A program made the translations under genes and the position numbers. The notes beneath the pieces were generated by a model. That model was not told where the DNA came from. It did no database searches and worked only from the letters and a program-made list of their open reading frames with translations. 64,000 nucleotides of DNA from Escherichia phage ECP2303. Shown here in pieces: positions 29,133 through 45,527 of the stretch. The DNA is taken from the sequence record PP261279.1, one strand, 5' to 3'. Numbering within the stretch: position 1 is the stretch's first letter; each line of letters starts with the position of its first letter.

Positions 29133-29474
29133 CTACTCAAGGTCTTCAGAGTCAAGCTCAAAAAGAATCAAACTGTGCATGCCTGCAGAGAGATCAACAC
29201 ACCCTGCAACAATAAGGGTTTGATAGTAAGGTTCAGCACCCTCAATATCTTCGTTAAAATCCACAACAAGGTAGTCACCTTTGTTAAAGGTGTATTTGTC
29301 CGATGTAAACGCAAAACCTGCCCAGTCACCTACTGCAGGATCTTTATCAGTCACCTTTGTTAGCAGTAGATCTTTTTCACGAGATCTTTTAGTAAAATCG
29401 TGAATCACAACATCCTTCTCTTCAGGAGTCGGATTGCCACACACGTAGTTAACGATATTTCTCCACAAACTCAT
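29133..29474 (-). CDS. hypothetical protein
   Basis: 113-aa ORF; 4-nt overlap with the Dda-like gene. Confidence 0.6.
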   Translation of the reverse strand: MSLWRNIVNYVCGNPTPEEKDVVIHDFTKRSREKDLLLTKVTDKDPAVGDWAGFAFTSDKYTFNKGDYLVVDFNEDIEGAEPYYQTLIVAGCVDLSAGMHSLILFELDSEDLE

Positions 29475-30841
29475 ACGTCCCCCTTTTCTGCTCTAGTTTC
29501 AAAATCTTTCCTGACTTTCTCGTCTAAGCCAGGAAAAGTTGTATTATAAAACTCTACGACTCTCGGGTCAACAATAATATCCACCTCTCTTAATGGACGC
29601 AACAAGTTTATTCCTTGTATCGTCTTAACCCGACTCAAGGCAACATACGTCATTCCGGGAGAGAAAGCTCCGTTCTTTCCGAGGTCCAGGTTGTAACAAT
29701 CTAGCGTAAGTCCTTGACTTTTATGTGATGTTACTGCGTACCCTGATTTCAAAGGGAGTTGCTCATAAGACCCGATCACAACCCTCTCTATGAACTTCTC
29801 CATCTTCCTTTCGGCAATATTGTACCTCTGGGAAGGTTTGTACTCGTTATTCTCCCACAATCTCGGCTCAATTTCAACCTGTGCCCCGTCTTCCAGCTCA
29901 ACTACTACAGATTTGGTCTTGAATTTTACCACTGTGGCGCGTGTCCCGTTGACATAGTACGGAACTTTGTGGGTAGGGTCAACATCGTTTGAGGTTATCA
30001 TAACCTTCATCCCTATCTTCAGCCTCATTTCCTGCTCCACAGGCAGTGTGGAAGGGAACTTACCTTTCATTTTACCAATGTAGGTCTTCTCTGGGGCCTT
30101 GATGGCATCATAGAAACGTCTGTTCACCTCCTCTGCTTGCTTATTGGTGGCACAGATGGTCAAGGCATCTGTTGGGACACCACCATGATAGCAACGAGTG
30201 TTAAGCTCTGCTACAACCTCTTTTATGCGACGACCTTCACGAACACAGTTCAACATTGTGGCGAAGCGAACAGATTCCTGACGGAACTGGTCTACTAAGG
30301 CTATATTGTGAAGATTAAGATCCTCCCAAGATTTTGTATAGCAACACAGATCTGTGTGGTAGAAGTTGAAGTAGGCCTCCTTCTCCATAGAAGAGACAAC
30401 TGGAGGTGCTTGGTAGAAGTCTCCAAACAATAACACCTGAATGCCTCCGAAAGGCTTGTCATTTTTCCGAAGAAAGCGGAGTTTTCTATCCATCTCTATG
30501 AACTTGTCAGCACGGATCATGGAGATTTCATCGATAATTAGGATGGTAAATGCCTTGCTTTTCAGAGGCTTTGCTGTTTTTGCCCTTATTGCTGTCCAGT
30601 CTGACTCCATGCTCACACCTGCGGCAAGATCGAAAGTTCGGTGAGCTGTTGCTCCATTAACGTTTAAAGCGGCTACCCCTGTCGGGGCAACCGTTATGCA
30701 AGAGTCTCCATACATGGACTGGATTATGTTGATAAGATATGTCTTCCCTGTTCCACCAGGTCCACTTACGAAGACATTCTCACCGCTCATGATTGCAACA
30801 AGGGCAGCATCTGTGCCTACATCGTACTGCCCTTTTTCCAT
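29471..30841 (-). CDS. dda: SF1B DNA helicase, Dda/Pif1/RecD-like
   Basis: 456 aa; Walker A GPGGTGKTY; VAPTGVAA; Walker B DEISMI; VTSHKSQGLTLD. Confidence 0.8.
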   Translation of the reverse strand: MEKGQYDVGTDAALVAIMSGENVFVSGPGGTGKTYLINIIQSMYGDSCITVAPTGVAALNVNGATAHRTFDLAAGVSMESDWTAIRAKTAKPLKSKAFTILIIDEISMIRADKFIEMDRKLRFLRKNDKPFGGIQVLLFGDFYQAPPVVSSMEKEAYFNFYHTDLCCYTKSWEDLNLHNIALVDQFRQESVRFATMLNCVREGRRIKEVVAELNTRCYHGGVPTDALTICATNKQAEEVNRRFYDAIKAPEKTYIGKMKGKFPSTLPVEQEMRLKIGMKVMITSNDVDPTHKVPYYVNGTRATVVKFKTKSVVVELEDGAQVEIEPRLWENNEYKPSQRYNIAERKMEKFIERVVIGSYEQLPLKSGYAVTSHKSQGLTLDCYNLDLGKNGAFSPGMTYVALSRVKTIQGINLLRPLREVDIIVDPRVVEFYNTTFPGLDEKVRKDFETRAEKGDV

Positions 30842-32082
30842 TACGCCTCCTCGTAGATAATGTCGATAGTGTTACCGTCGCGGTCAACCACGTACTCAAT
30901 TGGGTCGCCATCTTTGCGTGATTCTGGAGCTACTACGATTTCGTAGCGGCATGCACGGCACTTGGCACTGTTGTGTTGGTAAGGCACACTAACTACATCA
31001 GCAGGGTCAACCATAACCGTCATCACAGTTCCATAGCTCTTTGCATACTCTTTGCTGGCACAGTGCAGGCCATAAGAGCATGCAGCTTCCGGATCATCCT
31101 CTACAAAGTTACGGGGCATGGATACAAAAGCCCCCTGGTATTGTGGGACTTTACCACTGTGCCAATCCACCCACTTGTCGCCGTTAAACTGAACCCCTTT
31201 GTAGCAAATGATTCGACCATCTTCTGCAATCTGAATGTCGTTTGCCTGCATAAAATCGTAGAGCATGTTTACAGATTTTGCAGAAGGATTGCGTAGCAGG
31301 CGAACGAGGAATTTCACATAGCGGTCATCCAGTGTTCCGTCTGCATAATCTTTCTCAATTTTCTTTGCAATGGTGGATCGCATCTCTACACCGTAGTAGT
31401 AGAGCTTACCATCTTTCATGATCAGGTTGTCTGCAAGTGTGGTGAACTCATTCTTGCGTTCCAGCCAGACAAGGATTTCACCAATTGCCTCGTCATATTC
31501 CTGAACAGAGATATGTTCGAAGACTTTCTGGTAAACTTCCTCGCTTTCACTGCGGCGAATTTCAAAAATACCTTCGTTGCAGGTGATCTGGAGGAGTTCC
31601 CCGCAAATAACCACCAAAGGCTCGATGCTTCGGGTCTGTTGCTGAGACACACTGCTCACCACCTCCAGCACCGGGTCTTTGACTTCTACTAAAGGTTCTT
31701 CTGACTTGATTGCTACCCCAGTGAACCCTACACCGTGAACAACACACAGCGGATATACCACGCCCCAACGTTTAACGGAACCTTCTCCTAAATCTAAGAT
31801 CATGGCGTACTTACCGTTATCTTCCAGCCCATATCGAAATAAACGGGCCTCTTCACGGGTTTCAAAATCCTCACGGGTGTAGCAGACGCTGTCACGGTCA
31901 GGATCGAACAACTCTGGGGCACCTACTGCCAGTGTCCAGGTTGTGTTACCTTTCTCAATAGCGCATGTGAAACCCTTCTTCTCAAGCTCTGCACGGCGGT
32001 CACGTGCTTCTTTACGAGTTTTGAAATGTTCGTAGATGAAAATCATCTTGGTCTCCTTATTTGATGTTATTCTTTGTATCAA
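30841..32082 (-). CDS. hypothetical protein (possible rIIB-like partner of the upstream GHKL protein)
   Basis: 413 aa; start overlaps the end of the GHKL gene by 26 nt; rIIB assignment rests on gene order only. Confidence 0.55.
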   Translation of the reverse strand: MIQRITSNKETKMIFIYEHFKTRKEARDRRAELEKKGFTCAIEKGNTTWTLAVGAPELFDPDRDSVCYTREDFETREEARLFRYGLEDNGKYAMILDLGEGSVKRWGVVYPLCVVHGVGFTGVAIKSEEPLVEVKDPVLEVVSSVSQQQTRSIEPLVVICGELLQITCNEGIFEIRRSESEEVYQKVFEHISVQEYDEAIGEILVWLERKNEFTTLADNLIMKDGKLYYYGVEMRSTIAKKIEKDYADGTLDDRYVKFLVRLLRNPSAKSVNMLYDFMQANDIQIAEDGRIICYKGVQFNGDKWVDWHSGKVPQYQGAFVSMPRNFVEDDPEAACSYGLHCASKEYAKSYGTVMTVMVDPADVVSVPYQHNSAKCRACRYEIVVAPESRKDGDPIEYVVDRDGNTIDIIYEEA

Positions 32083-34039
32083 TCAGTTCACGGTATTCAA
32101 TCATAGCAGGAGTGTCCCAATATTTCAAGCCTACATGCTTCAAAAGTGGATATTTCTTTTCCAATCTTGCAATATAGGCCTTCCCGCACTTAACCCGGTT
32201 GGCGATTAAGATTTTGGCACGATGATTTAGCTCACCGTACTTCCACGTGGTGCTACCTTCCCACTTGTGAAAATGTGGCCGATAACTTCCAAAATCCTGC
32301 ATGGGGATAATTTTACCTAACTGTCTGTACAGGCTGTCATATGAAGTTTCATTTGCTGCGCGAGTTAGTAAGAATTTCCAAGCATCCTCTTTCAACAAAT
32401 GTTCCACATTCTTCTCTGTAACATATTGGCAATCAGGATCAGTCCAAAGCAGACGAGATTCCGACACCAGGTACAGATCTTCCCCTTCAGGAATCTGGAG
32501 TGCCGCACGCACACGGTCATAATCTTGCTGGTAGATGTTGCTCATCTGCCCTAGCCAACAACTTCCGCGTTGGATATCCCCCTCATACGGTATGCAGTGC
32601 TTAATCTTCCTGAACTCTGCCTTAGTAATACGCTCACGCCGGAAGTAACCATCCTTCTCAAGTTTTTTAACCCAATAGCCTGGTTCGTAACGGGTTTTGG
32701 TTTCACCTTTCTTCGTAGGTCGGCGTGGAAGCTCCGATAACAATTTGACCGTATCTGCAAAAAACGGATGGTGTGCCGCCTCTTTAAACTCTTTCACCAG
32801 ATCCGTGTTACGGCAATAGAAAACGTTGCGTCCGGTAATCTCGCTTAAGTAGTTACACTTATTCCGGTTATATTTGCCGTCTCCGTCGTTAAATACTAAA
32901 TAAACTCCCCGTAAGAATTCTACCTTTCCGTAGCAGGCGTAACCTATGCGGCCTTTATTTAAGCCGCCAGCGAAGATCTCGCAGTCCCCCAAATTTCCTA
33001 GCCCTGTTTCTTCCCAGCGGTCATACATAAAATTCTTACCGAAGATGTGCCCGAACACTCCACTGTTCTTCATCATCTCGCGTGCTTCTGAGGATGTTTT
33101 TGCTGTCTCCAGTTCTGCAACAACTTCTGCTCCACGAAGGCGAATGCCTTCTTTGACAAAAGCTTCCAAACGCTCTTGGAATCCACCATCGTCGTGACCT
33201 TCTATGGTCCATTCACGCCCTGGGTTAATATTGCAATCTCCGATAGGGATCTCTACACAAATTGCAGGATAATCTATTAGTGTCTCCAGGAACTTAGAAC
33301 GGTAAGGTTGGTGACCCATTACCACACGACTCTCGTCAGAGCTGGTATAACCCTTCAGGATGGTCATTTTCCAACCATCCTTCTCGTAGTGATACTGCGC
33401 CTCAACCTTGTCACCTTCCAGCATCTTACTGGTCATAGGGTCGGTAACGGTAAACGGAAACTTTGCATAGCGTAGGCATGACGCAATAGCAGTGCGATAT
33501 TTCAGGACATGCTCTTTCTTAACATGGAACTGAACTTTTACCCCGTTGTGCTCTTCAGTCTTCCGCTCGCGGATCTTGGTAACGTTTGGGATACCCTGAT
33601 CCAAGAACAATAGATATGTGCTTTCAACACCATTGTGCACACTGATAACATCGAAAGTGTCCACCATGCTGAACGGAGCCTTTGAACCAACACCTTTATT
33701 ACCTACCAGAGCGTTGCTGTTGCGCTTGGTTGACTCCCCGAGGTTCATGAAAGTGTTGCGGACCATCTCTTCTGACATGCCCAATCCAACGTCCTGCACA
33801 AAGAAGTATGGTTCAAGGTCTGTAGGGGAGTGAATGATGATCGGTACATCACCCCGTCCAGACTCAACATGAGAGTCCACAGCATTGAAGATTGGTTCAC
33901 GGCAGCTTGCCAGCACCTTATCTTCGTAAATCCCTTTAATGATTAGCCCAAAAGTCTCTTTGTTCAGAGAAATTGAGCCCCTGGTGACCTCCATATTTCC
34001 GGTTAGTACTGCTTTAGTTTCATTACTGTTTACAATCAT
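32057..34039 (-). CDS. GHKL-type ATPase domain protein (Hsp90/MutL/histidine-kinase-like fold; rIIA-like)
   Basis: 660 aa; N-box REPIFNAVDS, G1 VQDVGLGMS, G2 GNKGVGSKAPF in GHKL order and spacing. Confidence 0.6.
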   Translation of the reverse strand: MIVNSNETKAVLTGNMEVTRGSISLNKETFGLIIKGIYEDKVLASCREPIFNAVDSHVESGRGDVPIIIHSPTDLEPYFFVQDVGLGMSEEMVRNTFMNLGESTKRNSNALVGNKGVGSKAPFSMVDTFDVISVHNGVESTYLLFLDQGIPNVTKIRERKTEEHNGVKVQFHVKKEHVLKYRTAIASCLRYAKFPFTVTDPMTSKMLEGDKVEAQYHYEKDGWKMTILKGYTSSDESRVVMGHQPYRSKFLETLIDYPAICVEIPIGDCNINPGREWTIEGHDDGGFQERLEAFVKEGIRLRGAEVVAELETAKTSSEAREMMKNSGVFGHIFGKNFMYDRWEETGLGNLGDCEIFAGGLNKGRIGYACYGKVEFLRGVYLVFNDGDGKYNRNKCNYLSEITGRNVFYCRNTDLVKEFKEAAHHPFFADTVKLLSELPRRPTKKGETKTRYEPGYWVKKLEKDGYFRRERITKAEFRKIKHCIPYEGDIQRGSCWLGQMSNIYQQDYDRVRAALQIPEGEDLYLVSESRLLWTDPDCQYVTEKNVEHLLKEDAWKFLLTRAANETSYDSLYRQLGKIIPMQDFGSYRPHFHKWEGSTTWKYGELNHRAKILIANRVKCGKAYIARLEKKYPLLKHVGLKYWDTPAMIEYRELIDTKNNIK

Positions 34040-34536
34040 TTATTGCGCTCCTTGTAGTAGATATGACTCCCGAACTGAGCTGTCCTCTGCATCTTTTTTG
34101 CCCATTTCGGTCGTACTTTGGTTGTATGGTAGTGTGTTGCTCCACCTGTTATGTCCATAGCCATGTATGCAACATGGTTGTTATTATAGACCTTTAGAAG
34201 CATCTTTGCAAGACTTTTAGCGTGATCCCATGAATCTTTTTCTGTCACCTTAAAAGTTTTGCCGTGGTTTGTCCACGAAAACTGGTTAGGTTGGTAGACA
34301 ATCTTTCTTATGGTGTCTGGGTATTTGGGGTGAGATTTCCTGTTTAGGGTGGCAAACCCAGATGCCAGCATACCCATCGTGCCATCCCCTCTAGCTTCCC
34401 TGTAGATATTGCATGCTAGAATGTTTTCCTTAGTATCTGATGGCTTGCAAGTATGGTATACTTTTTGTTTTGGTGCTGCAACAACAGGCAGCGATAAAAA
34501 TGCGCTCAAAATAATAGCAAAGATCTTAATTTTCAC
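34036..34536 (-). CDS. secreted cell-wall hydrolase, SleB/CwlJ-like
   Basis: 166 aa; signal peptide MKIKIFAIILSAFLSLPVVAA; NIYREARGDG...ATLNR...YQPNQFSW matches the SleB-type signature; probable GTG start. Confidence 0.65.
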   Translation of the reverse strand: MKIKIFAIILSAFLSLPVVAAPKQKVYHTCKPSDTKENILACNIYREARGDGTMGMLASGFATLNRKSHPKYPDTIRKIVYQPNQFSWTNHGKTFKVTEKDSWDHAKSLAKMLLKVYNNNHVAYMAMDITGGATHYHTTKVRPKWAKKMQRTAQFGSHIYYKERNK

Positions 34537-34554: not shown

Positions 34555-34576
34555 ATCCCCGCCGAAGCGGGGGAGG
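34555..34576 (-). terminator. terminator/attenuator hairpin
   Basis: Minus-sense cccccgcttcggcgggg followed by attttctattt; same stem-loop as 60698-60713. Confidence 0.45.
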
Positions 34577-37483: not shown

Positions 37484-37762
37484 TTAGGCAATTGTCATTT
37501 TACATTCTTGAAATTTTAACACAAGACGGTGATTGTGTCTAGTGTCTAAAAAGATTTTTTCAACCATCAGGCACACGGTATAACCGTCCATCTTGTTGAC
37601 AACAAAATCTCCAGGGTAAGGGAGAGTGTCCCCTGGGCTGGGAAAGCATAACCCGCTCAGAAAGGCATCATCGGTGGTGGACTTAATGGATTTCCACACA
37701 CTATCTGCCTGAACATTCTCACCAACATAATATACACTACCACATGACTTCATCATAGTCAA
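37484..37762 (-). CDS. hypothetical protein
   Basis: 92-aa ORF. Confidence 0.55.
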   Translation of the reverse strand: MTMMKSCGSVYYVGENVQADSVWKSIKSTTDDAFLSGLCFPSPGDTLPYPGDFVVNKMDGYTVCLMVEKIFLDTRHNHRLVLKFQECKMTIA

Positions 37763-38657
37763 TCTCCGCGTAAATTAAACTGGAATCAGTATACTTCTTT
37801 AATGGGTAAATATCCTGTCCATAGATGCAATCATTAAACACCTCATCTACCCAAAGGCTACGCTTATATCCCATCATTTCTAAAACACTCATCTCTTCTT
37901 CGGTAAACTTATCACCACTCTTGCAAGATGTCAATACCTCATTTTGAACTCTTGCTACCTCGAATCGGTTATTGGCAATATCGCTATTGGCGATCAAATA
38001 CTCACCTAGAGGGTGTGCGGCATTAAAGATGCACAGTGGACGGCTGACGTAATAGTCTCCGGGTGTATAAAAATTGTTGAGGTCTTTCACTAGAACATTC
38101 TTATCAGTCACTTCATTTATAACATCATGCATATCGCACATCTTTATATGTTTGAGGATTCCATCTCCCATCACAAAATAAAAACTTGCTGAGACACTTT
38201 CGGCATAGATCTTACTAGATCCGTTGTAGTTGTATTTTACTCGGATGCTAACGGGGGTTTTTCCTGTCGCGTTAGCCATCATCCAAAGAAATGGCAGCTC
38301 ATACTTCTCCTCTGAGGAAACAAAAGGTGAGGTAGCCAGAGATCGAAAACCTCCAGAGAAGTTGAAAGTTACAGAACCGCTCCGGCGGTATGATACCGCG
38401 TATTCTACTTTTATATCGACGTACCCATTGGAATAGGTGTGTCCTTCATTATCTAAATATGTCCACTTATCAGACCCAGATACCAATCTACGCTCAATAA
38501 CCTTCATCACTACAGGAATTAGTGGGTTGGTACAAACCGCTTTTGAAGTAGCTTTATCATCTAAAGCCTCGTAAATTGCAGAAAGGATGTCCCCAGCTGA
38601 AAGATTGGTTGTTATGTCCTGTTTCCACCGCGTACTAAAACTGTTAAGATTTGCCAT
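37737..38657 (-). CDS. hypothetical protein (first gene of the leftward operon)
   Basis: 306-aa ORF directly downstream of the minus-strand promoter at 38698-38726. Confidence 0.65.
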   Translation of the reverse strand: MANLNSFSTRWKQDITTNLSAGDILSAIYEALDDKATSKAVCTNPLIPVVMKVIERRLVSGSDKWTYLDNEGHTYSNGYVDIKVEYAVSYRRSGSVTFNFSGGFRSLATSPFVSSEEKYELPFLWMMANATGKTPVSIRVKYNYNGSSKIYAESVSASFYFVMGDGILKHIKMCDMHDVINEVTDKNVLVKDLNNFYTPGDYYVSRPLCIFNAAHPLGEYLIANSDIANNRFEVARVQNEVLTSCKSGDKFTEEEMSVLEMMGYKRSLWVDEVFNDCIYGQDIYPLKKYTDSSLIYAEIDYDEVMW

Positions 38658-38697
38658 AAGTAAGTGCTCCTATGTTAGTTTTCTTTCGAATGGGTGC

Positions 38698-38726
38698 ACT
38701 ATATTGTGGAGTTAGAGTAAAGTCAA
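38698..38726 (-). promoter_or_regulatory. sigma70-like promoter for the leftward operon
   Basis: Minus-sense TTGACT-17 nt-TATAGT. Confidence 0.6.
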
Positions 38727-38745
38727 CACGTTTTTGATGTTGACA
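38722..38745. promoter_or_regulatory. operator-like inverted repeat shared by the divergent promoters
   Basis: GTCAACAcgtttttgaTGTTGAC overlapping both -35 elements. Confidence 0.45.
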
Positions 38746-38768
38746 TCTGTTGAGACAATTGATACGAT
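38740..38768 (+). promoter_or_regulatory. sigma70-like promoter for the rightward operon
   Basis: TTGACA-17 nt-TACGAT. Confidence 0.55.
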
Positions 38769-38799
38769 TTCTTCACTTACAGAGCACGAGAGACGACGC

Positions 38800-39777
38800 A
38801 TGAATCTTGAAAAATATTATACACCAGAAGAGTTAGAGCGCTTGCTCAAAAAATATAGACGCAAACAGAATAACGCACGGAAACGAGATATAGAGTTCGA
38901 CCTGTCATGGGAAGAATACCTCCTATTTGGTAAAAAACTTTTAGGAGATGGAGTATGCGACTATACCCTTATACCTTTTGACATGCACACAGATGAAAAC
39001 GGGCTGGGGAATCCTTTCTACCCATCTTTGGAGCGTATAGATGATGAAGGTCCTTACGCAATTGACAATTGTTGTGTGGTAGGGTTGAGGTGCAATGCTC
39101 TGAAAGACTGTCTGGTAGATAAAAAGACTGCAATCCTGATTAAAGACAAAACTGATCGAAAAATTGTCCAGCAGATGATGCTCCACCTGAGTGAAGAGCG
39201 TATGGAGAAGTTGAAAGGTGATTATACTTTTGAAGATTTCATCTTGCAATACGGGACAGAAGAAGATAAACTAGCACTATTTGACGAAGAGGAAGAAGAT
39301 ATGTCACCGATGCAGGATTTTAAAAATTTCATGGCTGATCGTGCAGCCAACAAACACATTTCAGACATCGTAAACGAGACTGTGACAGAAGAAATTGAAG
39401 AACAGACATCTGAAGAGGAAAAAGAGCCTCAGGTGGTTGAAGAGGAGATTGCAGAAGAGGTTCCTGCACTGCCTGATGATGTTGAGATTGCTAAGGCTTA
39501 CACTTTCTATTGTCAAACGTTCTACGATGCAGGTATGAAAGTTGACCTGTCGTTCAGCCAATTTAAGAGTTCGTATATTCGCAAATGCTGTGCTTTAACT
39601 GGTGAACGTCTCGGAGCTGGACTTAAACCACTGTTGGTGACCGACTGGAATAAAGGTTTCACTAAAGGAAACTTTATGGTAGTATCTCCAATTATGGAGA
39701 AAGCTATGACAGATCTTATGAAGACCACCCGCATGACAATGACCGAGTTGGCAGGTATTTTCAAACACGTTAAATAA
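38800..39777 (+). CDS. HNH-endonuclease-like domain protein
   Basis: ORF-track frame from 38734; start moved to the ATG at 38800 because the first ATG overlaps the -35; CDY...SLERIDDEGPY..DNCCVVGLRCNALK resembles an HNH core. Confidence 0.45.
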   Translation: MNLEKYYTPEELERLLKKYRRKQNNARKRDIEFDLSWEEYLLFGKKLLGDGVCDYTLIPFDMHTDENGLGNPFYPSLERIDDEGPYAIDNCCVVGLRCNALKDCLVDKKTAILIKDKTDRKIVQQMMLHLSEERMEKLKGDYTFEDFILQYGTEEDKLALFDEEEEDMSPMQDFKNFMADRAANKHISDIVNETVTEEIEEQTSEEEKEPQVVEEEIAEEVPALPDDVEIAKAYTFYCQTFYDAGMKVDLSFSQFKSSYIRKCCALTGERLGAGLKPLLVTDWNKGFTKGNFMVVSPIMEKAMTDLMKTTRMTMTELAGIFKHVK

Positions 39778-39810
39778 TGACAGGGGCCATTGGCCCCTTC
39801 TGGAGTTTTA

Positions 39811-41271
39811 ATGGATAGCAGAAGTTCAGAAATCATTGCCTCACAGAAAGATGATGCCCTGAGAATGTTGCAGGCTGCACGTATGTATCTCCTTGAAAAG
39901 CTGCCGTTTTATGGCACACTGCTGTCAGGATTGCAGTTCGTAGAAAACCACACATGGTGCTCCACCATGGCAACCGACCATAAACGCATCTATTACAGCC
40001 CTGAGTTCATTATGGGATTGGCTGATGAACGCAAGGTTATTCTTAAGGCTTCTCTAACTGACGAACAGTTTGAGATGGCTGAGGTTTTCTATTCCCTCAA
40101 ATCTGTGAAAGAGGTGGCTTTTCTTCTGTCACACGAGGTGGGGCATATTATCTGTGATCACCTGGTCCGTGGTAAAAGCTTCGAGCCGGAACTGTTTAAT
40201 ATTGCTTGTGATCATGTTATCAACACAGGTCTTGTGGTTGACTTTAGCAAGCCTCCCTGTGTTTTCTTCCCGAAGGGGAAAAGCACTACGTTCGTGAAAG
40301 GTAAGCCTTTTGGTTTCTTAGCCAGCTGCTACTGCGACATGAGGTTTCATGGATGGATTGCTGAGAACGTCTATGCGGTTCTTGATAAGCAAAGAGATCA
40401 GAATAACGGTAAAAGTAAGAGCGGTAAAGGTGAGAACTCTCAAGGGGATAAGCGACAAACCGATGATCACATGAGTGGGAACGGTGGCACCAGCGATGAT
40501 CTTGGAAAGGCTATGGGGTATGATCAGCCACAACCTGTAATCAGCCAATCTGATAAAGATCAGGCCATGCAAGACTCTGGTGACATGCTGGAAGCAGCAA
40601 TGCAAGCTTCCGGAGGTCGTTGCCCCGAGGCGGTGCGTGAGTTTGTCAAGAACAGAGGTAAGCCTGTAATCAACTATATAGACATCATTAAGCAACGCAT
40701 GTTGTCTAAACGAAAGGCCGAACTGACCTACAGAAAACCTGGTCGCCGATCTGGGTCTTTGACCAGCACAATGCGAAAAGTTGGGGCTATAAACAAGAAC
40801 CAGCACGTTATTGTTCCTGGTCGTAATCCGGAAAACACCATAGATATTGTGGTAGCTTTAGACGTTTCTGGCTCGATATCTCAAAGAACTTTAAAGAAAA
40901 TGTTCAATGAAATCACCGGATTGTGCAATCTGTATAAAGAGTTTAAGGTTACAATGTTCTGTTGGTCAACTGAAGTCGGAGAGGTTAAAGTATATACTCG
41001 CGGCAACATAGACGAAATGATCAACTATGAGGTCCACTCAACATGGGGCACAACAGCTGCTTGCGTGTTCGAGTATCTGGATGCCAACATACCAAATGCA
41101 AAAGATGTCATCGTCCTGACCGACCTATACTTTGAGCATAACTTTGAACAAAAGGCTGTTGACAACAAGTGGAAAAAGTACGATACTTTATGGGTTCTCA
41201 CCGAAGGGTATAATAAAAATTATATCCCTAGCTTTGGTAAAACTGTGGAATTAATCGAGTACGCTAAGTAA
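39811..41271 (+). CDS. vWA-domain protein with N-terminal HExxH putative metallopeptidase domain
   Basis: HExxH in LLSHEVGHIICDH; MIDAS-like DxSxS in VVALDVSGSIS; ATG at 39811 after ggag. Confidence 0.7.
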   Translation: MDSRSSEIIASQKDDALRMLQAARMYLLEKLPFYGTLLSGLQFVENHTWCSTMATDHKRIYYSPEFIMGLADERKVILKASLTDEQFEMAEVFYSLKSVKEVAFLLSHEVGHIICDHLVRGKSFEPELFNIACDHVINTGLVVDFSKPPCVFFPKGKSTTFVKGKPFGFLASCYCDMRFHGWIAENVYAVLDKQRDQNNGKSKSGKGENSQGDKRQTDDHMSGNGGTSDDLGKAMGYDQPQPVISQSDKDQAMQDSGDMLEAAMQASGGRCPEAVREFVKNRGKPVINYIDIIKQRMLSKRKAELTYRKPGRRSGSLTSTMRKVGAINKNQHVIVPGRNPENTIDIVVALDVSGSISQRTLKKMFNEITGLCNLYKEFKVTMFCWSTEVGEVKVYTRGNIDEMINYEVHSTWGTTAACVFEYLDANIPNAKDVIVLTDLYFEHNFEQKAVDNKWKKYDTLWVLTEGYNKNYIPSFGKTVELIEYAK

Positions 41272-41286
41272 GAGAGGATGTTATTT

Positions 41287-41544
41287 ATGGCAACAGAGGT
41301 AGTAATTAAAGCTGAACGCCCAGTTAAAAAAGCTATCAACACGTTCCCTGTGGGGACCATTGTGAGCATGATCACAGAGTCAGGTCGTGTATCTACGCTG
41401 CTGATTGTGAAATCTGCATGTTCTTCTTGTGTGTGGGCTTACGATCTGGACGAGAAAGAACTAAAAGATTTTGTTGGGGAGCTGAAAGCAACCGAGCTCG
41501 ATGCTCGTATCGAAGTATTTGGTGAAACTATGGAGGAAGAGTAA
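41287..41544 (+). CDS. small paralog-family protein
   Basis: Start at MATEVV...; similar in outline to 41544..41807 and 41809..42042. Confidence 0.55.
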   Translation: MATEVVIKAERPVKKAINTFPVGTIVSMITESGRVSTLLIVKSACSSCVWAYDLDEKELKDFVGELKATELDARIEVFGETMEEE

Positions 41545-41807
41545 TGACCACGAAAATCACTATTGCAGAACCGAAAGCTAACACGCAACCTATCGAAAAG
41601 TTTAAATGCGGCGAGGTGGTAACATTCACACCAGATAATGAAGATGCTAAGATTTTCGCAATGGTCACAGCTGAGTGGATGTGTGACAACACCACACAGG
41701 TTCTGCGTTTTGACACCTATCTTACCGATGAAATCAGGAACGACAAGATTGTGACTGGTGTGGATACTGAGATTGTTTTCTACAAGAGCTTTTTAGAGGG
41801 TTTCTGA
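41544..41807 (+). CDS. small paralog-family protein
   Basis: 87-aa ORF. Confidence 0.6.
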   Translation: MTTKITIAEPKANTQPIEKFKCGEVVTFTPDNEDAKIFAMVTAEWMCDNTTQVLRFDTYLTDEIRNDKIVTGVDTEIVFYKSFLEGF

Positions 41808-41808
41808 T

Positions 41809-42042
41809 ATGGCAAAAATTCGAAAATTATCTAGCAATCAGGTTGTGAAAGACTTCGAATCTGGAGAGATTCTTTATGTTCGTGATGCAGATGACGAAGG
41901 TGAAGATCTCGTTATGTTGGTGGGGCACGCTGAGGACGGATGCATCCAAGCTGTTTTTCTTGAAACAGCTATGGTGCACTGGATAGAGCTGGACTTGAAA
42001 GCACGAAAACCTAAAGCAGAAATCCTGATTTACGAAGATTAA
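41809..42042 (+). CDS. small paralog-family protein
   Basis: 77-aa ORF. Confidence 0.6.
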   Translation: MAKIRKLSSNQVVKDFESGEILYVRDADDEGEDLVMLVGHAEDGCIQAVFLETAMVHWIELDLKARKPKAEILIYED

Positions 42043-42058
42043 CAAAAAGGAGATAGCC

Positions 42059-42508
42059 GTGTTGAGCAAGCGTGAATGCGACAGCATTAGCCTGAATTCT
42101 TATAAGAAACAATGGTTTGGGGTAGAAGTTTGCCGACTGCGGCTAGGCTCCTACCTGAACTTCGTTTATTATGAGAGCGATAGTCGTATCGTTTCTTATG
42201 AAGTGTTCTACACTAAGAACACCTTCGAACTGCGCCGTAAAGTGGATGGCGGGAGAACTACCGCTCAGAATAATTGGGAAACTATCCTACCTACAGATGT
42301 TATAGGAAGTCCCCTGAATGTATCTGAAGATGAAAATCTTATGGTTCATGCTATGATGGGACTTGACAGCTTAGAGCTGGCAATCTATGATATGTCCATC
42401 GAAGCAGTTAAGCTGGACTACATCGAAAACACTTTAGAGGAAGGTATCAAGAAGTTTCTCAGTGAGAAATTAAAAGACCACTTTCATAAGGAGCTATACC
42501 TGTTATGA
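42059..42508 (+). CDS. hypothetical protein
   Basis: 149 aa; GTG start after aaaggag. Confidence 0.55.
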   Translation: MLSKRECDSISLNSYKKQWFGVEVCRLRLGSYLNFVYYESDSRIVSYEVFYTKNTFELRRKVDGGRTTAQNNWETILPTDVIGSPLNVSEDENLMVHAMMGLDSLELAIYDMSIEAVKLDYIENTLEEGIKKFLSEKLKDHFHKELYLL

Positions 42509-42750
42509 AGACCCGTAAAGAACGTAACAAAATTTTACCTGGAGCTCTCGAACACCTGATGAAGTGCAGATCTATTTGGCACTCTGCCAAGGAAGGGCAG
42601 AAGGTGGTTGTGGTTAGTGACAATACCAACCCGTTTGGAGATTATACCACTATGATGGCCCCGTATGTCCGTGATGGTGTTGTGGAAGTGGTCCCTTACA
42701 ACGGTCTGCATGAACGGCACTTTGAAAGCACTTTGCTAGTGGAGCTATAG
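42505..42750 (+). CDS. hypothetical protein
   Basis: 81-aa ORF; ATGA overlap with the upstream gene. Confidence 0.6.
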   Translation: MKTRKERNKILPGALEHLMKCRSIWHSAKEGQKVVVVSDNTNPFGDYTTMMAPYVRDGVVEVVPYNGLHERHFESTLLVEL

Positions 42751-42752
42751 TC

Positions 42753-43319
42753 ATGGCGGTCAATGTGGCTTACAACACAGGAAAGCTTGACAGAGACATT
42801 GGGTGTCTTGTCCTTTCAGATACAGAAGAGTATTGGGGTTATGGGTTGCTGTCAGACCCACACCCGAGCAACCTTGTATCAACAGTGCTATACCGCTACG
42901 ACCCTGTGCCAACGGTACACGACAAAGACATTCACGACCTTCGGATCAAGTGTCTGGAAGATCTGCTGAACAATGGTTGCAATGATCTGAGGGTAGCCAA
43001 AGAGAAGCTTACAAACATTCACAAAGAGGAAGTGATGAGCACCCTCAGTAAGAGATCAGTGCACAAAAAGATGATGCTGAACTTTGCAATGGGTATCTAC
43101 ATGGACGGGTATAAGGGAGGTGATCCGATTCTCAAGCTTCGCTGCCCAACACTGTGGGAAAGGGTGGTTGACAGTAAGGACGGCACTGCCCTGCTTGAGC
43201 TTCACACTGCAGGTTGGATATGGCGGTATGTTGATGGATACCCTCTATGGGCATGTGGGCCTGGGGAATTTGTTGACAGGCCTAGTGCGGTGGTGGACCT
43301 GCTATTGCAGTTTGAATAA
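42753..43319 (+). CDS. hypothetical protein
   Basis: 188-aa ORF. Confidence 0.65.
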   Translation: MAVNVAYNTGKLDRDIGCLVLSDTEEYWGYGLLSDPHPSNLVSTVLYRYDPVPTVHDKDIHDLRIKCLEDLLNNGCNDLRVAKEKLTNIHKEEVMSTLSKRSVHKKMMLNFAMGIYMDGYKGGDPILKLRCPTLWERVVDSKDGTALLELHTAGWIWRYVDGYPLWACGPGEFVDRPSAVVDLLLQFE

Positions 43320-43374
43320 AAGTGAGATATAAGGTGTTCATGCACCTACTAACAATACAACAAGAGAGACTGAG

Positions 43375-43650
43375 ATGACGAAAGAAGAAGCTGACGTATT
43401 AGACTTTGCACTGGAGGCTACGCAAGAGGCTCTGGTGTTAGCTTGGAAAATGAACCAGCGTGCTGCAGAATGCAACCGCCGAATCAATGAGATCCTGGGC
43501 ATGTCTATGTATGATTTCACCATGCATGCTGGAGAGATTCCTGAATTAACTGCTGAGATGAATGATCTTGACGATAAAATTAATATCATTCTGAAGACAG
43601 CAGAAACAACTCACCAAACCGCCCGTAAATTTATCAACGAGAAGGTGTGA
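43375..43650 (+). CDS. hypothetical protein
   Basis: 91-aa ORF. Confidence 0.6.
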   Translation: MTKEEADVLDFALEATQEALVLAWKMNQRAAECNRRINEILGMSMYDFTMHAGEIPELTAEMNDLDDKINIILKTAETTHQTARKFINEKV

Positions 43651-44117
43651 ATATGGACTACAGCTACTGCGGGGAAGAGGTCCCTTTTAACTACAGCAAT
43701 CTTACCACAAGCAATCCATATGAGACACGCCACGGCACACACATCATTGCCATTGACTTTGATGGAACATTTAATGCGAGTCCTTTCATCTTCTCCCGCC
43801 TGATCAGGGACCTGAAGAAGGAGAGGTGGACAGTATACCTTGTGACTTTCCGATTCATTACTCAAGACAATGTGGACATTGAGTATTGGCGCAAGGAGCT
43901 TGATGTTGGTGTGTTTTATACTGGAGGTATTCAGAAGGCAGCCTATCTGGCGCAGTTTGATATCTACCCAGATATTTGGATTGATGATTCTCCGGCATGT
44001 ATTCCGGCTAAAAATCAGTTAGAGTTTGCAATGAAGGAGATCGAGTATAAGTCTGAGGCTAAGCGGAACGGATGGCCTTTTATTATTGAAGATTACCCAG
44101 ATCCTGAACCGGAGTAA
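43647..44117 (+). CDS. HAD-superfamily phosphatase-like protein (5'(3')-deoxyribonucleotidase-like)
   Basis: HAD motif I IIAIDFDGTF and motif IV-like IWIDDSP; 156 aa. Confidence 0.5.
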   Translation: MNMDYSYCGEEVPFNYSNLTTSNPYETRHGTHIIAIDFDGTFNASPFIFSRLIRDLKKERWTVYLVTFRFITQDNVDIEYWRKELDVGVFYTGGIQKAAYLAQFDIYPDIWIDDSPACIPAKNQLEFAMKEIEYKSEAKRNGWPFIIEDYPDPEPE

Positions 44118-44122
44118 GAGCC

Positions 44123-44293
44123 ATGAGGCGAAGATATCATTACCTGATGTGGAAGTTATATCATGGTGCTGCTAAAGCTTACCGCACCGTGTTTAGTAAT
44201 GACAATCACTGCATTATGTTACGCCTTGCCGCCATTGGACATCACAATGAGTGGATTCGTGCAATCGTAATAGGTGACAAAGATTTTAAGTAA
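44123..44293 (+). CDS. hypothetical small protein (56 aa)
   Basis: Hand-found ORF MRRRYHYLMWKLYHGAAKAY... with RBS ggag; below the ORF-track cut-off. Confidence 0.3.
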   Translation: MRRRYHYLMWKLYHGAAKAYRTVFSNDNHCIMLRLAAIGHHNEWIRAIVIGDKDFK

Positions 44294-44323
44294 AGTATTG
44301 CTTTCTAGATGGAGACTGATTAA

Positions 44324-44704
44324 ATGTGCAAGTGTAAATCCTATAATTGGAAAGTGAAAGGTGCCAAGCATCAAAATGTTATCGTTGATGTGCCTAAAAA
44401 GCTCCGTGACGGCAAAAAACGTGTGTGCCTTGATAAGTGCATGGCTAAGCCTATCATGAGTCTATGGGCGGCAGGATTGAAAACTCTAAACTGCTGCTGT
44501 GGTCATAACAAAGATGTTCCAAGTATCATTATCCCAGAAGATGCAGACCCTAAAGCTTATGCAAAAATACTGACCCGCTACCCCAGCACCTTCCTGATCG
44601 GAAAATGGTGTCACGATGAACTTCAATGGTGGGTAGCATACGGTAGTATAGGTACTGCTTTTGGCTTTCCAGCCCTGTCAGAGCGCTACGTAAAAGTGTC
44701 ATAA
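44324..44704 (+). CDS. cysteine-rich protein
   Basis: 126 aa; multiple Cys clusters (MCKCKS, LNCCCGHN). Confidence 0.6.
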   Translation: MCKCKSYNWKVKGAKHQNVIVDVPKKLRDGKKRVCLDKCMAKPIMSLWAAGLKTLNCCCGHNKDVPSIIIPEDADPKAYAKILTRYPSTFLIGKWCHDELQWWVAYGSIGTAFGFPALSERYVKVS

Positions 44705-44869
44705 TCGATTTTAAGGCCTCAAACGAGGCCTGTGCCTTCATAAATTGTCCTACCCTATGTGATTACCCACCCTGAACAAAATACCTCTCCAAAATCGTTT
44801 AAAATTAAGCTTGACCCCAACATCAGATCTATGTATGATTACCTCACCAACCAAACAGAGGAGATCGTC

Positions 44870-45277
44870 ATGAACAATCTTGCAGATGTAAATGTCGAAA
44901 TTGTTAAACTAAAGTTCTTGGGCTTTCGAGACCCTTATTCTTTAACAGCTATACTAATGGACACTCACTTCACACCAGGTAAAGAGTACACAGCCTTCCG
45001 TTATATTTGTGGAGATCACGAATCAGCTTATAGTGTGAATACAAACCTCGGCGAGGGATATTTCATCAGAGATATCACAGATCACTTATGGGGAATGTGG
45101 GAGTTGGTGGAAGAAGAGAATAAATCCCTTCCTAAAGAGATTTGGGTGCACACCTTCCACACAGGTAAGTTTGGAGGTACGGAACATAAGTCTATCCACT
45201 ATGATGAAGAAAGTGCCATCAAACAACAAGCTGTGCTTGGTGGATCTGTAGAAAAATTTTTTAAATGCGAGGACTGA
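44870..45277 (+). CDS. hypothetical protein
   Basis: Start at MNNLADV... with RBS gaggag. Confidence 0.55.
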   Translation: MNNLADVNVEIVKLKFLGFRDPYSLTAILMDTHFTPGKEYTAFRYICGDHESAYSVNTNLGEGYFIRDITDHLWGMWELVEEENKSLPKEIWVHTFHTGKFGGTEHKSIHYDEESAIKQQAVLGGSVEKFFKCED

Positions 45278-45280
45278 GAA

Positions 45281-45481
45281 ATGGCTGATTTTTGTAAAGA
45301 TTGCTCTGAAGAGTTGTTTGGCTTTGACTGCAAAGATTTGGAAGGTCTGATCACTGAGGATCAGTGGAAGGAAGGCTATGCAGCACCTGTTATTTGTGAA
45401 GGTTGTGGCTATACCTATGTTGACCATAAAGGTAAGCGCGTCAAGCCGTCTGAAGATGGGGCATGTTGGGAGTATTACTAA
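45281..45481 (+). CDS. zinc-ribbon-like small protein
   Basis: 66 aa; CKDC...CEGCG cysteine pairs. Confidence 0.55.
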   Translation: MADFCKDCSEELFGFDCKDLEGLITEDQWKEGYAAPVICEGCGYTYVDHKGKRVKPSEDGACWEYY

Positions 45482-45484
45482 CTA

Positions 45485-45520
45485 TAAAAAGAAAGGGGCC
45501 GTTTGGCCCCTTTTTATTTA
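45485..45520. terminator. bidirectional rho-independent terminator between convergent operons
   Basis: Hairpin aaaggggccgtttggcccctttt flanked by A-run on one side and T-run on the other. Confidence 0.7.
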
Positions 45521-45527
45521 CCCCTTG

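Follow-up and report, generated by a model that had tools for sequence, protein, structure and literature searches.

A rIIA-rIIB gene pair of a Vequintavirus-type coliphage and its probable role against Rex-type exclusion

Two adjacent genes of Escherichia phage ECP2303 (PP261279.1) constitute, with a probability that we put at about 0.9, the rIIA-rIIB module of a Vequintavirus (rV5-like) coliphage acting against Rex-type exclusion. The analysis covered a stretch of 64,000 nucleotides of this record, here called the window, which is genome DNA of such a phage; within it, positions 30841-34039 share 100% identity with Escherichia phage ECP2309 (PP464953.1), and 119 phage records match this segment. 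The pair is already known, and its identification is correct but ordinary. The discovery value is small because the identical deposited genome names rIIA, sister genomes name rIIB, and near-identical orthologues were tested in 2025. As a matter of annotation, the gene for the 401-amino-acid (aa) protein of ECP2309, labelled 'hypothetical protein' in that record, should read rIIB.

Identity and layout of the gene pair

The open reading frame (ORF) listing contains two long co-directional ORFs in this segment. A first-pass annotation had marked the same two ORFs, which stand, without stating that both lie on the minus strand. The rIIA gene (32057..34039, minus strand) encodes 660 aa plus a stop codon and is annotated as 'rIIA protector' in PP464953.1. 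The rIIB gene (30841..32046, minus strand) encodes 401 aa plus a stop codon, starting from an ATG at 32046, with the same CDS limits in ECP2309, ECP26, and EdH4.

The suggestion that the pair is rIIA/rIIB-like, made by the first-pass annotation, was supported by family profiles and by direct comparison with phage T4. rIIA matches PHROG 612 (RIIA) over its full length (E value of 2e-123; residues 1-658 on profile positions 1-724), and the same family is the best PHROG match of T4 rIIA. When the two rIIA proteins were compared directly, BLASTP gave an E value of 4e-21 over residues 1-198 and hhalign a probability of 100% over 303 columns (residues 1-307 on T4 residues 1-311), an alignment that comprises the GHKL domain and the domain following it. 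For rIIB, the match to PHROG 609 (RIIB), the family that also holds T4 rIIB, has an E value of 1.4e-61; the comparison with the T4 protein itself yielded 37% identity over 204 residues by BLASTP (E value of 8e-39) and a probability of 99.9% by hhalign. The resemblance thus goes beyond a generic GHKL likeness, because in rIIA it covers the full PHROG 612 profile and in rIIB the core matches T4. The arrangement of the genes recurs in other phages: in each of the 47 IMG/VR loci with upstream DNA, a diverse set with rIIB identities of 29-99%, rIIA immediately precedes rIIB in the same orientation, and none of these 47 loci encodes an rIIA-rIIB fusion. No other rII-like domains were found elsewhere within the window.

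The junction between the genes had initially been described as a 26-nt overlap of rIIA with the start of a 413-aa gene, suggesting coupled translation. This overlap is spurious and arose because the ORF caller took the first possible start (TTG 32082), a codon inside the end of rIIA. We rejected TTG 32082 as the rIIB start because it lacks a Shine-Dalgarno sequence whereas ATG 32046 has AAGGAG, and because all checked annotations agree on the latter. At the junction, rIIA ends with TAA (32057-32059), and ATG 32046 of the 401-aa rIIB follows after a 10-nt spacer; the AAGGAG sequence (32053..32058, minus strand) is separated from this ATG by a 6-nt gap, and two of its bases also belong to the stop codon of rIIA. 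The three GenBank records checked (ECP2309, ECP26, and EdH4) all annotate this start, and the length in protein cluster P0001 (344 members) is likewise 401 aa. Instead of being coupled to rIIA, translation of rIIB is predicted to rely on a strong ribosome-binding site of its own and to begin 10 nt past the rIIA stop.

Both genes lie in a tightly packed co-directional run composed of sleB, rIIA, rIIB, and a Pif1-like helicase gene. On the upstream side, the stop codon of the SleB-type cell-wall hydrolase gene (34036..34536, minus strand; Pfam Hydrolase_2, E value of 2e-19) overlaps the rIIA start by 4 nt (ATGA), and the upstream position of sleB is kept in related loci. On the downstream side, the ATG of the Pif1/Dda-like helicase gene (29471..30841, minus strand; Pfam PIF1, E value of 1e-33; PHROG 325) shares 1 nt with the stop codon of rIIB (TAATG); in all 16 related loci, a co-directional helicase gene of this kind lies 3' of rIIB, directly adjoining it in 14. 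Given these two overlaps, rIIA-rIIB is part of a longer run and not an isolated two-gene unit. Just upstream of sleB, a consensus scan detected a GC hairpin resembling a terminator, CCCCGCTTCGGCGGGG followed by a T-rich tail (34557..34572, minus strand), which may mark the 5' end of the transcription unit holding rIIA and rIIB. The promoter scan was uninformative, since it returned 26 sites when 21.1 ± 4.4 were expected.

Domain architecture of the two proteins

The first 190 residues of rIIA (33470..34039, minus strand) form a GHKL (Bergerat-fold) ATP-binding domain, as indicated by its motifs, by Pfam, and by an AF2 model with a pLDDT of 83. The N-box, G1, and G2 motifs that had been reported for the 660-aa protein are readable as E48xxxN52xxD55 (33875-33898), D83xGxG87 (33779-33793), and G113xxGxG118 (33686-33703), respectively, all on the minus strand, and the score against Pfam HATPase_c_3 is 34.9 bits, above the gathering cut-off of 25. 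Across 22 relatives, the most distant of them at about 20% identity, none of these motif residues varies. A second domain (residues about 195-310; 33110..33457, minus strand), with invariant Y246, R275, and E276, can be aligned to the transducer domain found in gyrase/Hsp90/MutL-type ATPases. rIIA combines the Bergerat fold with a transducer-like domain, which is a GHL-type feature, and is classed as a gyrase/Hsp90/MutL-type GHKL ATPase with all catalytic motifs intact; the intact, invariant motifs and the GHL-type fold make it plausible that rIIA is a working ATPase. The C-terminal half (residues 311-660; 32060..33109, minus strand) is lineage-variable. It lies inside the single PHROG 612 envelope, and an rIIA_C HMM shows it to be conserved in relatives of Vequintavirinae-like type; against T4 rIIA, neither BLASTP nor hhalign produced an alignment of this half. 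Pfam and NCBIfam returned no matches in rIIA to TOPRIM, MutL endonuclease/C-terminal, Hsp90 middle/C-terminal, CW, or hinge domains, and no solved structure of rIIA or rIIB was found in PDB sequence searches.

rIIB is made up of three parts, all encoded on the minus strand. Residues 1-102 (31741..32046) contain two tandem βαββ units (3-42 and 54-102) of SPOR-like or ferredoxin-like character, residues 103-143 (31618..31740) are a variable, low-confidence linker (pLDDT 23-27, variable alignment columns), and residues 144-401 (30844..31617) constitute the conserved rIIB core. This core is common to T4 and includes the motifs NPSxKxV, MPRxxVxD, C323-S-x-G-L-H328, D350, and K362xR364xC366; its structural matches in BFVD are rIIB proteins, and PF26926 is listed for rIIB relatives in the protein database. 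The conserved cluster of C323, H328, and C366 could conceivably represent an unrecognised metal or catalytic site.

Against the SPOR profile PF05036, the N-terminal fragment of rIIB scores 22.5 bits (cut-off 21) and the whole protein 19.2, with only profile positions 12-49 of 76 being matched. rIIB shows no export signal: its N-terminus, MIFIYEHFKTRKEARD, is charged, with no signal-like hydrophobic start and no membrane anchor. Because a signal peptide and a membrane anchor are lacking, the SPOR-like domain could not reach periplasmic peptidoglycan. A search of the N-terminal module against 1.84 billion representatives gave 4 matches only, two of them weak and to large repeat proteins, of which one has a SPOR signal, and the matches are too few for a function to be assigned from them. 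No HTH matches were obtained at the N-terminus of ECP2303 rIIB, where SPOR-like repeats take the place of a T4-type HTH; in T4 rIIB, residues 7-50 give several sub-threshold HTH matches. Since N-termini vary across the rIIB family, the lack of a T4-type HTH does not exclude membership. The two SPOR-like βαββ units in rIIB of the Vequintavirus lineage, as opposed to the HTH-like N-terminus of T4, are a modestly new detail.

Neither rIIA nor rIIB has a convincing transmembrane segment (Kyte-Doolittle maxima of 0.93 and 1.69, respectively). The 19-residue maximum of rIIB is located at residue 95, and residues 95-113 are the sole hydrophobic stretch of the pair; we rejected it as a transmembrane segment, as it is partly β-strand and then disordered linker and is not conserved. 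Any membrane association of the two proteins would therefore be peripheral.

Probable role against RexAB and competing explanations

A role in countering prophage-mediated exclusion, which the first-pass annotation had put forward, corresponds to an experimental result for the EdH4 orthologues, which are 97.0% and 96.8% identical to rIIA and rIIB (PMC11879866). Knock-down of EdH4_00063 or EdH4_00062 by CRISPRi-ART decreased the titre from 5e10 to 5e7 PFU/ml, i.e. about 1000-fold, on rexAB+ cells (PMC11879866, supplementary file 23), and no titre loss was seen without rexAB (PMC11879866). The same work, which calls the rII module widespread and 'poorly understood', reports that five phages, EdH4 among them, were unaffected by knock-down of either rIIA or rIIB when RexAB was absent (PMC11879866). 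For T4, rIIA and rIIB insertions were depleted solely when RexAB was present (bioRxiv 10.1101/2025.11.20.689424). By transfer from the congener EdH4, both ECP2303 proteins would be dispensable on ordinary hosts and required for plaques on E. coli with lambda RexAB. A need confined to RexAB+ hosts defines the module as a counter-defence against Rex-type abortive infection and not as a strict lysis inhibitor. RexAB affected only two or three phages of the BASEL panel, so the natural target of Vequintavirus rII may be another Rex-like system.

In the mechanism that we propose, rIIA and rIIB would act as one physical unit, in which rIIA may serve as an ATP-operated dimerising clamp and rIIB as its partner or adaptor at a membrane-associated phage replication site. 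The unit could either keep the Rex sensor RexA untriggered or stop RexB from depolarising the membrane, and of the two we slightly favour masking of the trigger over direct inhibition of RexB. Because the rIIB N-terminus is unlike that of T4, the details of targeting may differ. The rIIB of T-even phages triggers Tmn and a CARD-gasdermin system, which makes the divergent N-terminus a natural variant worth testing. It is conceivable, if rather improbable, that this N-terminus is an exchangeable targeting module (HTH-like in T4, tandem SPOR/ferredoxin-like βαββ in Vequintavirinae) that sets where rIIA-rIIB anchors. If that were true, the module would also determine which abortive-infection systems are neutralised and which sensors (Tmn, CARD-gasdermin) are tripped, and the rII module of Vequintavirus would be a variant with a function of its own, not a plain orthologue.

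Other explanations of the pair were weighed against a counter-defence role. A main role in phage DNA replication or transcription is one that we take seriously while holding it to be unlikely; rIIB would then be a DNA-binding regulator or an anchor between replisome and membrane, rIIA a DNA-acting GHKL ATPase, and Rex resistance a side effect. Consistent with this, T4 rIIB has been placed among specific transcription factors (Iyer et al. 2021) and has weak N-terminal HTH matches, the Tmn preprint describes RIIB as a component of the replisome that provides membrane anchoring, the proteins structurally closest to rIIA (topo II/IV/VI, MutL, MORC) act on DNA, and the helicase gene follows rIIB in each of the 16 related loci. 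Nevertheless, the rIIB of ECP2303 lacks an HTH and has a SPOR-like module in that position, and none of the phages tested needed the rII genes on Rex-free hosts. A role in replication is compatible with the version of our mechanism in which a replication-derived trigger is masked, and the two are not fully exclusive.

The label 'lysis inhibitor', found in many GenBank records, and the PHROG category 'lysis' with its label 'RIIA/RIIB lysis inhibitor' would suggest a true lysis-inhibition module, delaying holin-mediated lysis upon superinfection, and a cell-wall hydrolase gene does lie just upstream of rIIA. We judge this very improbable, given that the label is historical and stems from the 'r' plaque phenotype, that the T4 record ties rapid lysis to 'various lysogenic strains' and 'effects of specific prophage', and that the knock-downs in five phages, EdH4 included, were without effect absent RexAB. 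In T4, the genes responsible for lysis inhibition proper are rI, rIII, and the holin gene t. We give practically no credence to the idea of a generic GHKL protein, related to topoisomerases, MutL, Hsp90, or MORC, that lies next to an unrelated gene, with no rII module: the full-length match to the rIIA family profile, the direct match to T4 rIIA over the GHKL and second domains, and the conserved gene order in 47/47 loci refute it, the partner is unambiguously rIIB, and TOPRIM, MutL C-terminal, and Hsp90 middle/C-terminal domains were not detected. What speaks for such an enzyme is that no model for rIIA or rIIB from Pfam or NCBIfam matches the pair, in which these libraries see only generic HATPase_c_3, sacsin, and HSP90 signals, and that the PDB sequence search with rIIA reached TRAP1 at an E value of 0.1 only. 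The rIIA-rIIB module acting against Rex-type exclusion is the reading that we retain.

Comparison with related ATPases and known rII modules

rIIA shares only 9-18% sequence identity with the GHL-type GHKL ATPases (Hsp90/TRAP1, ParE/GyrB, topo VI-B, MutL, MORC, and SMCHD1), from which it differs by a C-terminal half specific to the rIIA family. Compared with the SPOR domain (PF05036), examples of which are the peptidoglycan-binding domains of RlpA, CwlC, and FtsN, rIIB matches half of the profile only.

A BFVD search turned up a single uninterrupted rIIA-rIIB ORF of 1049 codons in phage RB43. The fusion protein (YP_238977.1, 1049 aa) has the rIIA GHKL domain at residues 11-193 (1.4e-56) and the rIIB core at residues 842-1044 (2.7e-60), in the same order as in ECP2303, with one polypeptide in place of two genes. 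The RB43 fusion, the adjacency in 47/47 loci, a two-domain GHL-type ATPase whose catalytic residues do not vary, and the lack of a solved structural relative for the rIIB core frame the question of how rII defeats Rex.

T4 (AAD42647.1 and AAD42649.1) has the same order, rIIA then rIIB on one strand, and its junction, TAA TAAGGAAAATT ATG, is laid out as in ECP2303, with the Shine-Dalgarno sequence abutting the rIIA stop and a spacer of 10-11 nt. The N-terminal GHKL domain and the second domain of T4 rIIA are homologous to those of ECP2303, whereas the C-terminal half (about 350 aa) is unalignable pairwise. T4 rIIB is 312 aa long, compared with 401 aa in ECP2303, which has two SPOR-like βαββ units and a disordered linker where the T4 protein has its HTH-like N-terminus. 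The neighbours differ as well, being rIIA.1/gp60 and denB.1 in T4 and sleB and the Pif1-like helicase gene in ECP2303. EdH4 (Vequintavirus murica), a different isolate, encodes EdH4_00063 and EdH4_00062 with the amino acid identities given above, and the lengths of both proteins and their flanking genes agree with those of ECP2303; their 20 and 13 substitutions, respectively, all fall outside the GHKL motifs and outside the rIIB residues common to T4.

The rII gene pair and its junction

On the minus strand, the 660-aa GHKL ATPase gene rIIA (34039..32057) is followed by a second long ORF, its partner rIIB. The first-pass annotation described the latter as a 413-aa gene overlapping rIIA by 26 nt, but this overlap is an artefact: it depends on beginning the ORF at the earliest candidate codon, TTG 32082, which falls within the 3' end of rIIA and is not preceded by a ribosome-binding site; that start was rejected. 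The real start is ATG 32046, giving a 401-aa ORF (30841-32046, minus strand) with a Shine-Dalgarno sequence, AAGGAG, at 32058..32053, two bases of which are common to the rIIA stop codon. The junction thus reads ...AAA TAA GGAGACCAAG ATG, with 10 nt between the rIIA stop and ATG 32046; the T4 junction is alike (TAA TAAGGAAAATT ATG, spacer 11 nt). The 401-aa form is annotated in the phages ECP2309, ECP26 and EdH4, and protein cluster P0001 (344 members) is likewise 401 aa. The earlier observation is therefore confirmed in part, for the motifs and the gene pair but not for the overlap.

Genuine overlaps occur with the neighbours, as the SleB-type cell-wall hydrolase gene sleB directly upstream (34036-34536, minus strand) meets rIIA via ATGA and rIIB meets the Pif1-like helicase gene via TAATG, so that the rII pair forms part of a series of closely packed genes oriented in the same direction. 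The sleB product has a signal-peptide-like N-terminus (MKIKIFAIILSAFLSLPVVAAP), and a strong, terminator-like GC hairpin with a T-rich tail, a consensus match only, lies just upstream of sleB (34572..34557, minus strand).

We compared 50 IMG/VR loci with rIIB relatives (29-99% identity). Of these, 47 extend upstream of rIIB, and in 47/47 the gene directly before rIIB, on the same strand, is an rIIA-type GHKL ORF; the 16 nearer loci retain the gene order (sleB)-rIIA-rIIB-Pif1 helicase. Phage RB43 (NC_007023.1, 1-3150, minus strand) carries a single uninterrupted 1049-codon rIIA-rIIB fusion ORF, with the rIIA GHKL domain at 11-193 (1.4e-56) and the rIIB core at 842-1044 (2.7e-60); no such fusion was found in 47 other loci. 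The fusion also accounts for the matches of rIIA N-termini to PHROG 609, a profile of 1055 positions that carries the label RIIB. Strict adjacency and natural fusion argue, at the level of gene arrangement, that rIIA and rIIB would work as one physical unit.

Identity and anatomy of the two proteins

The GHKL motifs reported for rIIA at first pass are all readable (N-box E48xxxN52xxD55, G1 D83xGxG87, G2 G113xxGxG118). The protein scores 34.9 bits against Pfam HATPase_c_3 (cut-off 25), and across 22 aligned rIIA relatives, down to ~20% identity, the motif residues do not vary. rIIA matches PHROG 612 (RIIA), which is also the best family match of T4 rIIA, end to end (E 2e-123). T4 rIIA is 28% identical over residues 1-198 (BLASTP, E 4e-21) and aligns with the profile of the 22 relatives with 100% probability over 303 columns (hhalign, residues 1-307 vs T4 1-311). 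These columns span the ATP-binding domain together with the one that follows, so the similarity to the rII profiles goes beyond the generic GHKL fold. The AlphaFold model (mean pLDDT 83.2) identifies rIIA as a predicted gyrase/Hsp90/MutL-type ATPase with a Bergerat domain (~1-190) and a transducer-like domain (~195-310). In the second domain, Y246, R275 and E276 are invariant, and R275 may be the equivalent of the γ-phosphate-sensing Lys/Arg of gyrase/Hsp90/MutL-type enzymes. Over the C-terminal 350 residues, conservation is limited to Vequintavirinae-like relatives, in agreement with the 'highly variable C-terminal domain' of rIIA described by Iyer et al. 2021 (PMC7824862).

rIIB matches PHROG 609 (RIIB; E 1.4e-61) and T4 rIIB (37% identity over 204 residues, E 8e-39; hhalign probability 99.9%), and the structural neighbours of its model (mean pLDDT 73.7) among predicted viral proteins are rIIB proteins of many phage groups. 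The assignment as an rIIA/rIIB-like pair thus stands. In the model, two βαββ units (residues 3-42 and 54-102), which form an internal repeat (E 1e-4), are followed by a disordered, variable linker (~103-143) and a conserved core (144-397). The N-terminal units are weakly SPOR-like (Pfam SPOR, 19.2 bits for the whole protein and 22.5 for the fragment; cut-off 21). Because rIIB has no signal peptide, a periplasmic peptidoglycan-binding role is unlikely, and no convincing transmembrane segment was found in either rIIA or rIIB. The SPOR-like module is confined to the Vequintavirinae-like set among the rIIB loci compared and, in a search of 1.84 billion representatives, matched only four sequences; the T4 rIIB N-terminus is HTH-like instead, with several sub-threshold HTH matches at residues 7-50. 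In the core, C323 and H328 (within CSxGLH) and C366 (within KxRxC; window 30844-31617) are invariant in window rIIB, T4 rIIB and four other relatives; they may form a metal site or catalytic pair.

Source phage, database records and the wider window

The source is a Vequintavirus (rV5-like) coliphage. The deposited genome of ECP2309 (PP464953.1) is 100% identical to both window 1-25000 and window 30841-34039; at ≥90% identity, the latter, the rII region, has matches in 119 phage records, and most sister genomes already name the pair rIIA and rIIB. ECP2309 names rIIA and labels rIIB (CDS WXX18304.1, window 30841-32046) 'hypothetical protein', while other records use 'ATP-binding protein' for rIIA and 'SPOR domain-containing protein' for rIIB. 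At least 16 'Campylobacter phage' records (GenBank MG065635-MG065682; host C. jejuni) are ~93% identical across the whole rII region and match window 1-25000 as well; these appear to be mislabelled or contaminant assemblies. P0005, a 498-aa protein from a single 3.3-kb ENA contig, combines many TPR-repeat Pfam matches with a segment that matches 55% of window rIIB at 100% identity and is probably an assembly chimera.

Relative to PP464953.1, the window has a single 1-nt deletion around 37763 (record CAAATCTCC, window CAATCTCC) at the 3' end of a minus-strand fucosyltransferase-like gene, whose ORF is 306 aa (37737..38657) in the window vs a 299-aa CDS in the record (window-equivalent 37759..38658). 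Either a homopolymer slip or a difference of sequencing or version could account for this. Across ~38000-46000, where GC skew becomes positive and long ORFs change to the plus strand, a divergent transcription block separates two minus-strand blocks; the ECP2309 annotations for this stretch include an anti-termination protein and an HNH endonuclease. A search of the whole 64,000-nt window for tRNA genes gave none.

Counter-defence and comparison with known rII systems

EdH4 belongs to the same genus, and its EdH4_00063 and EdH4_00062 are 97.0% and 96.8% identical to window rIIA and rIIB, respectively. Adler et al. (Nat Microbiol 2025, PMC11879866) used dCas13d to knock down each of these genes: on cells expressing the lambda exclusion system rexAB, knock-down of rIIA or rIIB lowered the titre from 5e10 to 5e7 (supplementary file 23), whereas no titre fall occurred without rexAB. 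The same dependence was seen in T4, MM02, SUSP1 and N4 (PMC11879866), and transposon sequencing of T4 likewise finds rII conditionally essential (bioRxiv 10.1101/2025.11.20.689424). By analogy, the orthologue knock-downs and the T4 transposon data argue that the window rII module is a counter-defence against Rex-type abortive infection, and the role against prophage exclusion proposed in the first-pass annotation is supported. That databases call the genes 'lysis inhibitor' is a legacy of the historical rapid-lysis plaque type; the T4 record ties this plaque type to specific prophages.

Mechanistically, the intact motifs and fold suggest that rIIA would act as an ATP-operated dimerising clamp, as in other GHL ATPases, and the evidence for a two-protein unit that rIIB would be its obligate partner. 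The complex might hide an infection-derived signal from RexA, a DNA-binding protein and partner of the membrane protein RexB (PMC11077077), or might block RexB-mediated depolarisation. We lean weakly towards masking of the trigger, since the proteins structurally closest to rIIA act on DNA, T4 rIIB has an HTH and the neighbouring helicase gene is conserved.

For the phage, rIIB also carries a cost: T6 RIIB sets off a CARD-gasdermin system (PMC10312443) and T2 RIIB activates Tmn directly (PMC13001434). D219 of T2 RIIB, which matters for Tmn (PMC13001434), aligns with a variable loop of window rIIB, around F287.

The rII pair is already known, given that a deposited genome has the same sequence, sister genomes name both genes and orthologues almost identical to them have been put to the test. 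The only mildly new points are the GHL-type two-domain assignment of rIIA, the Cys/His cluster conserved in the core of rIIB, and the SPOR-like N-terminal module that replaces the HTH of T4 in Vequintavirinae rIIB.
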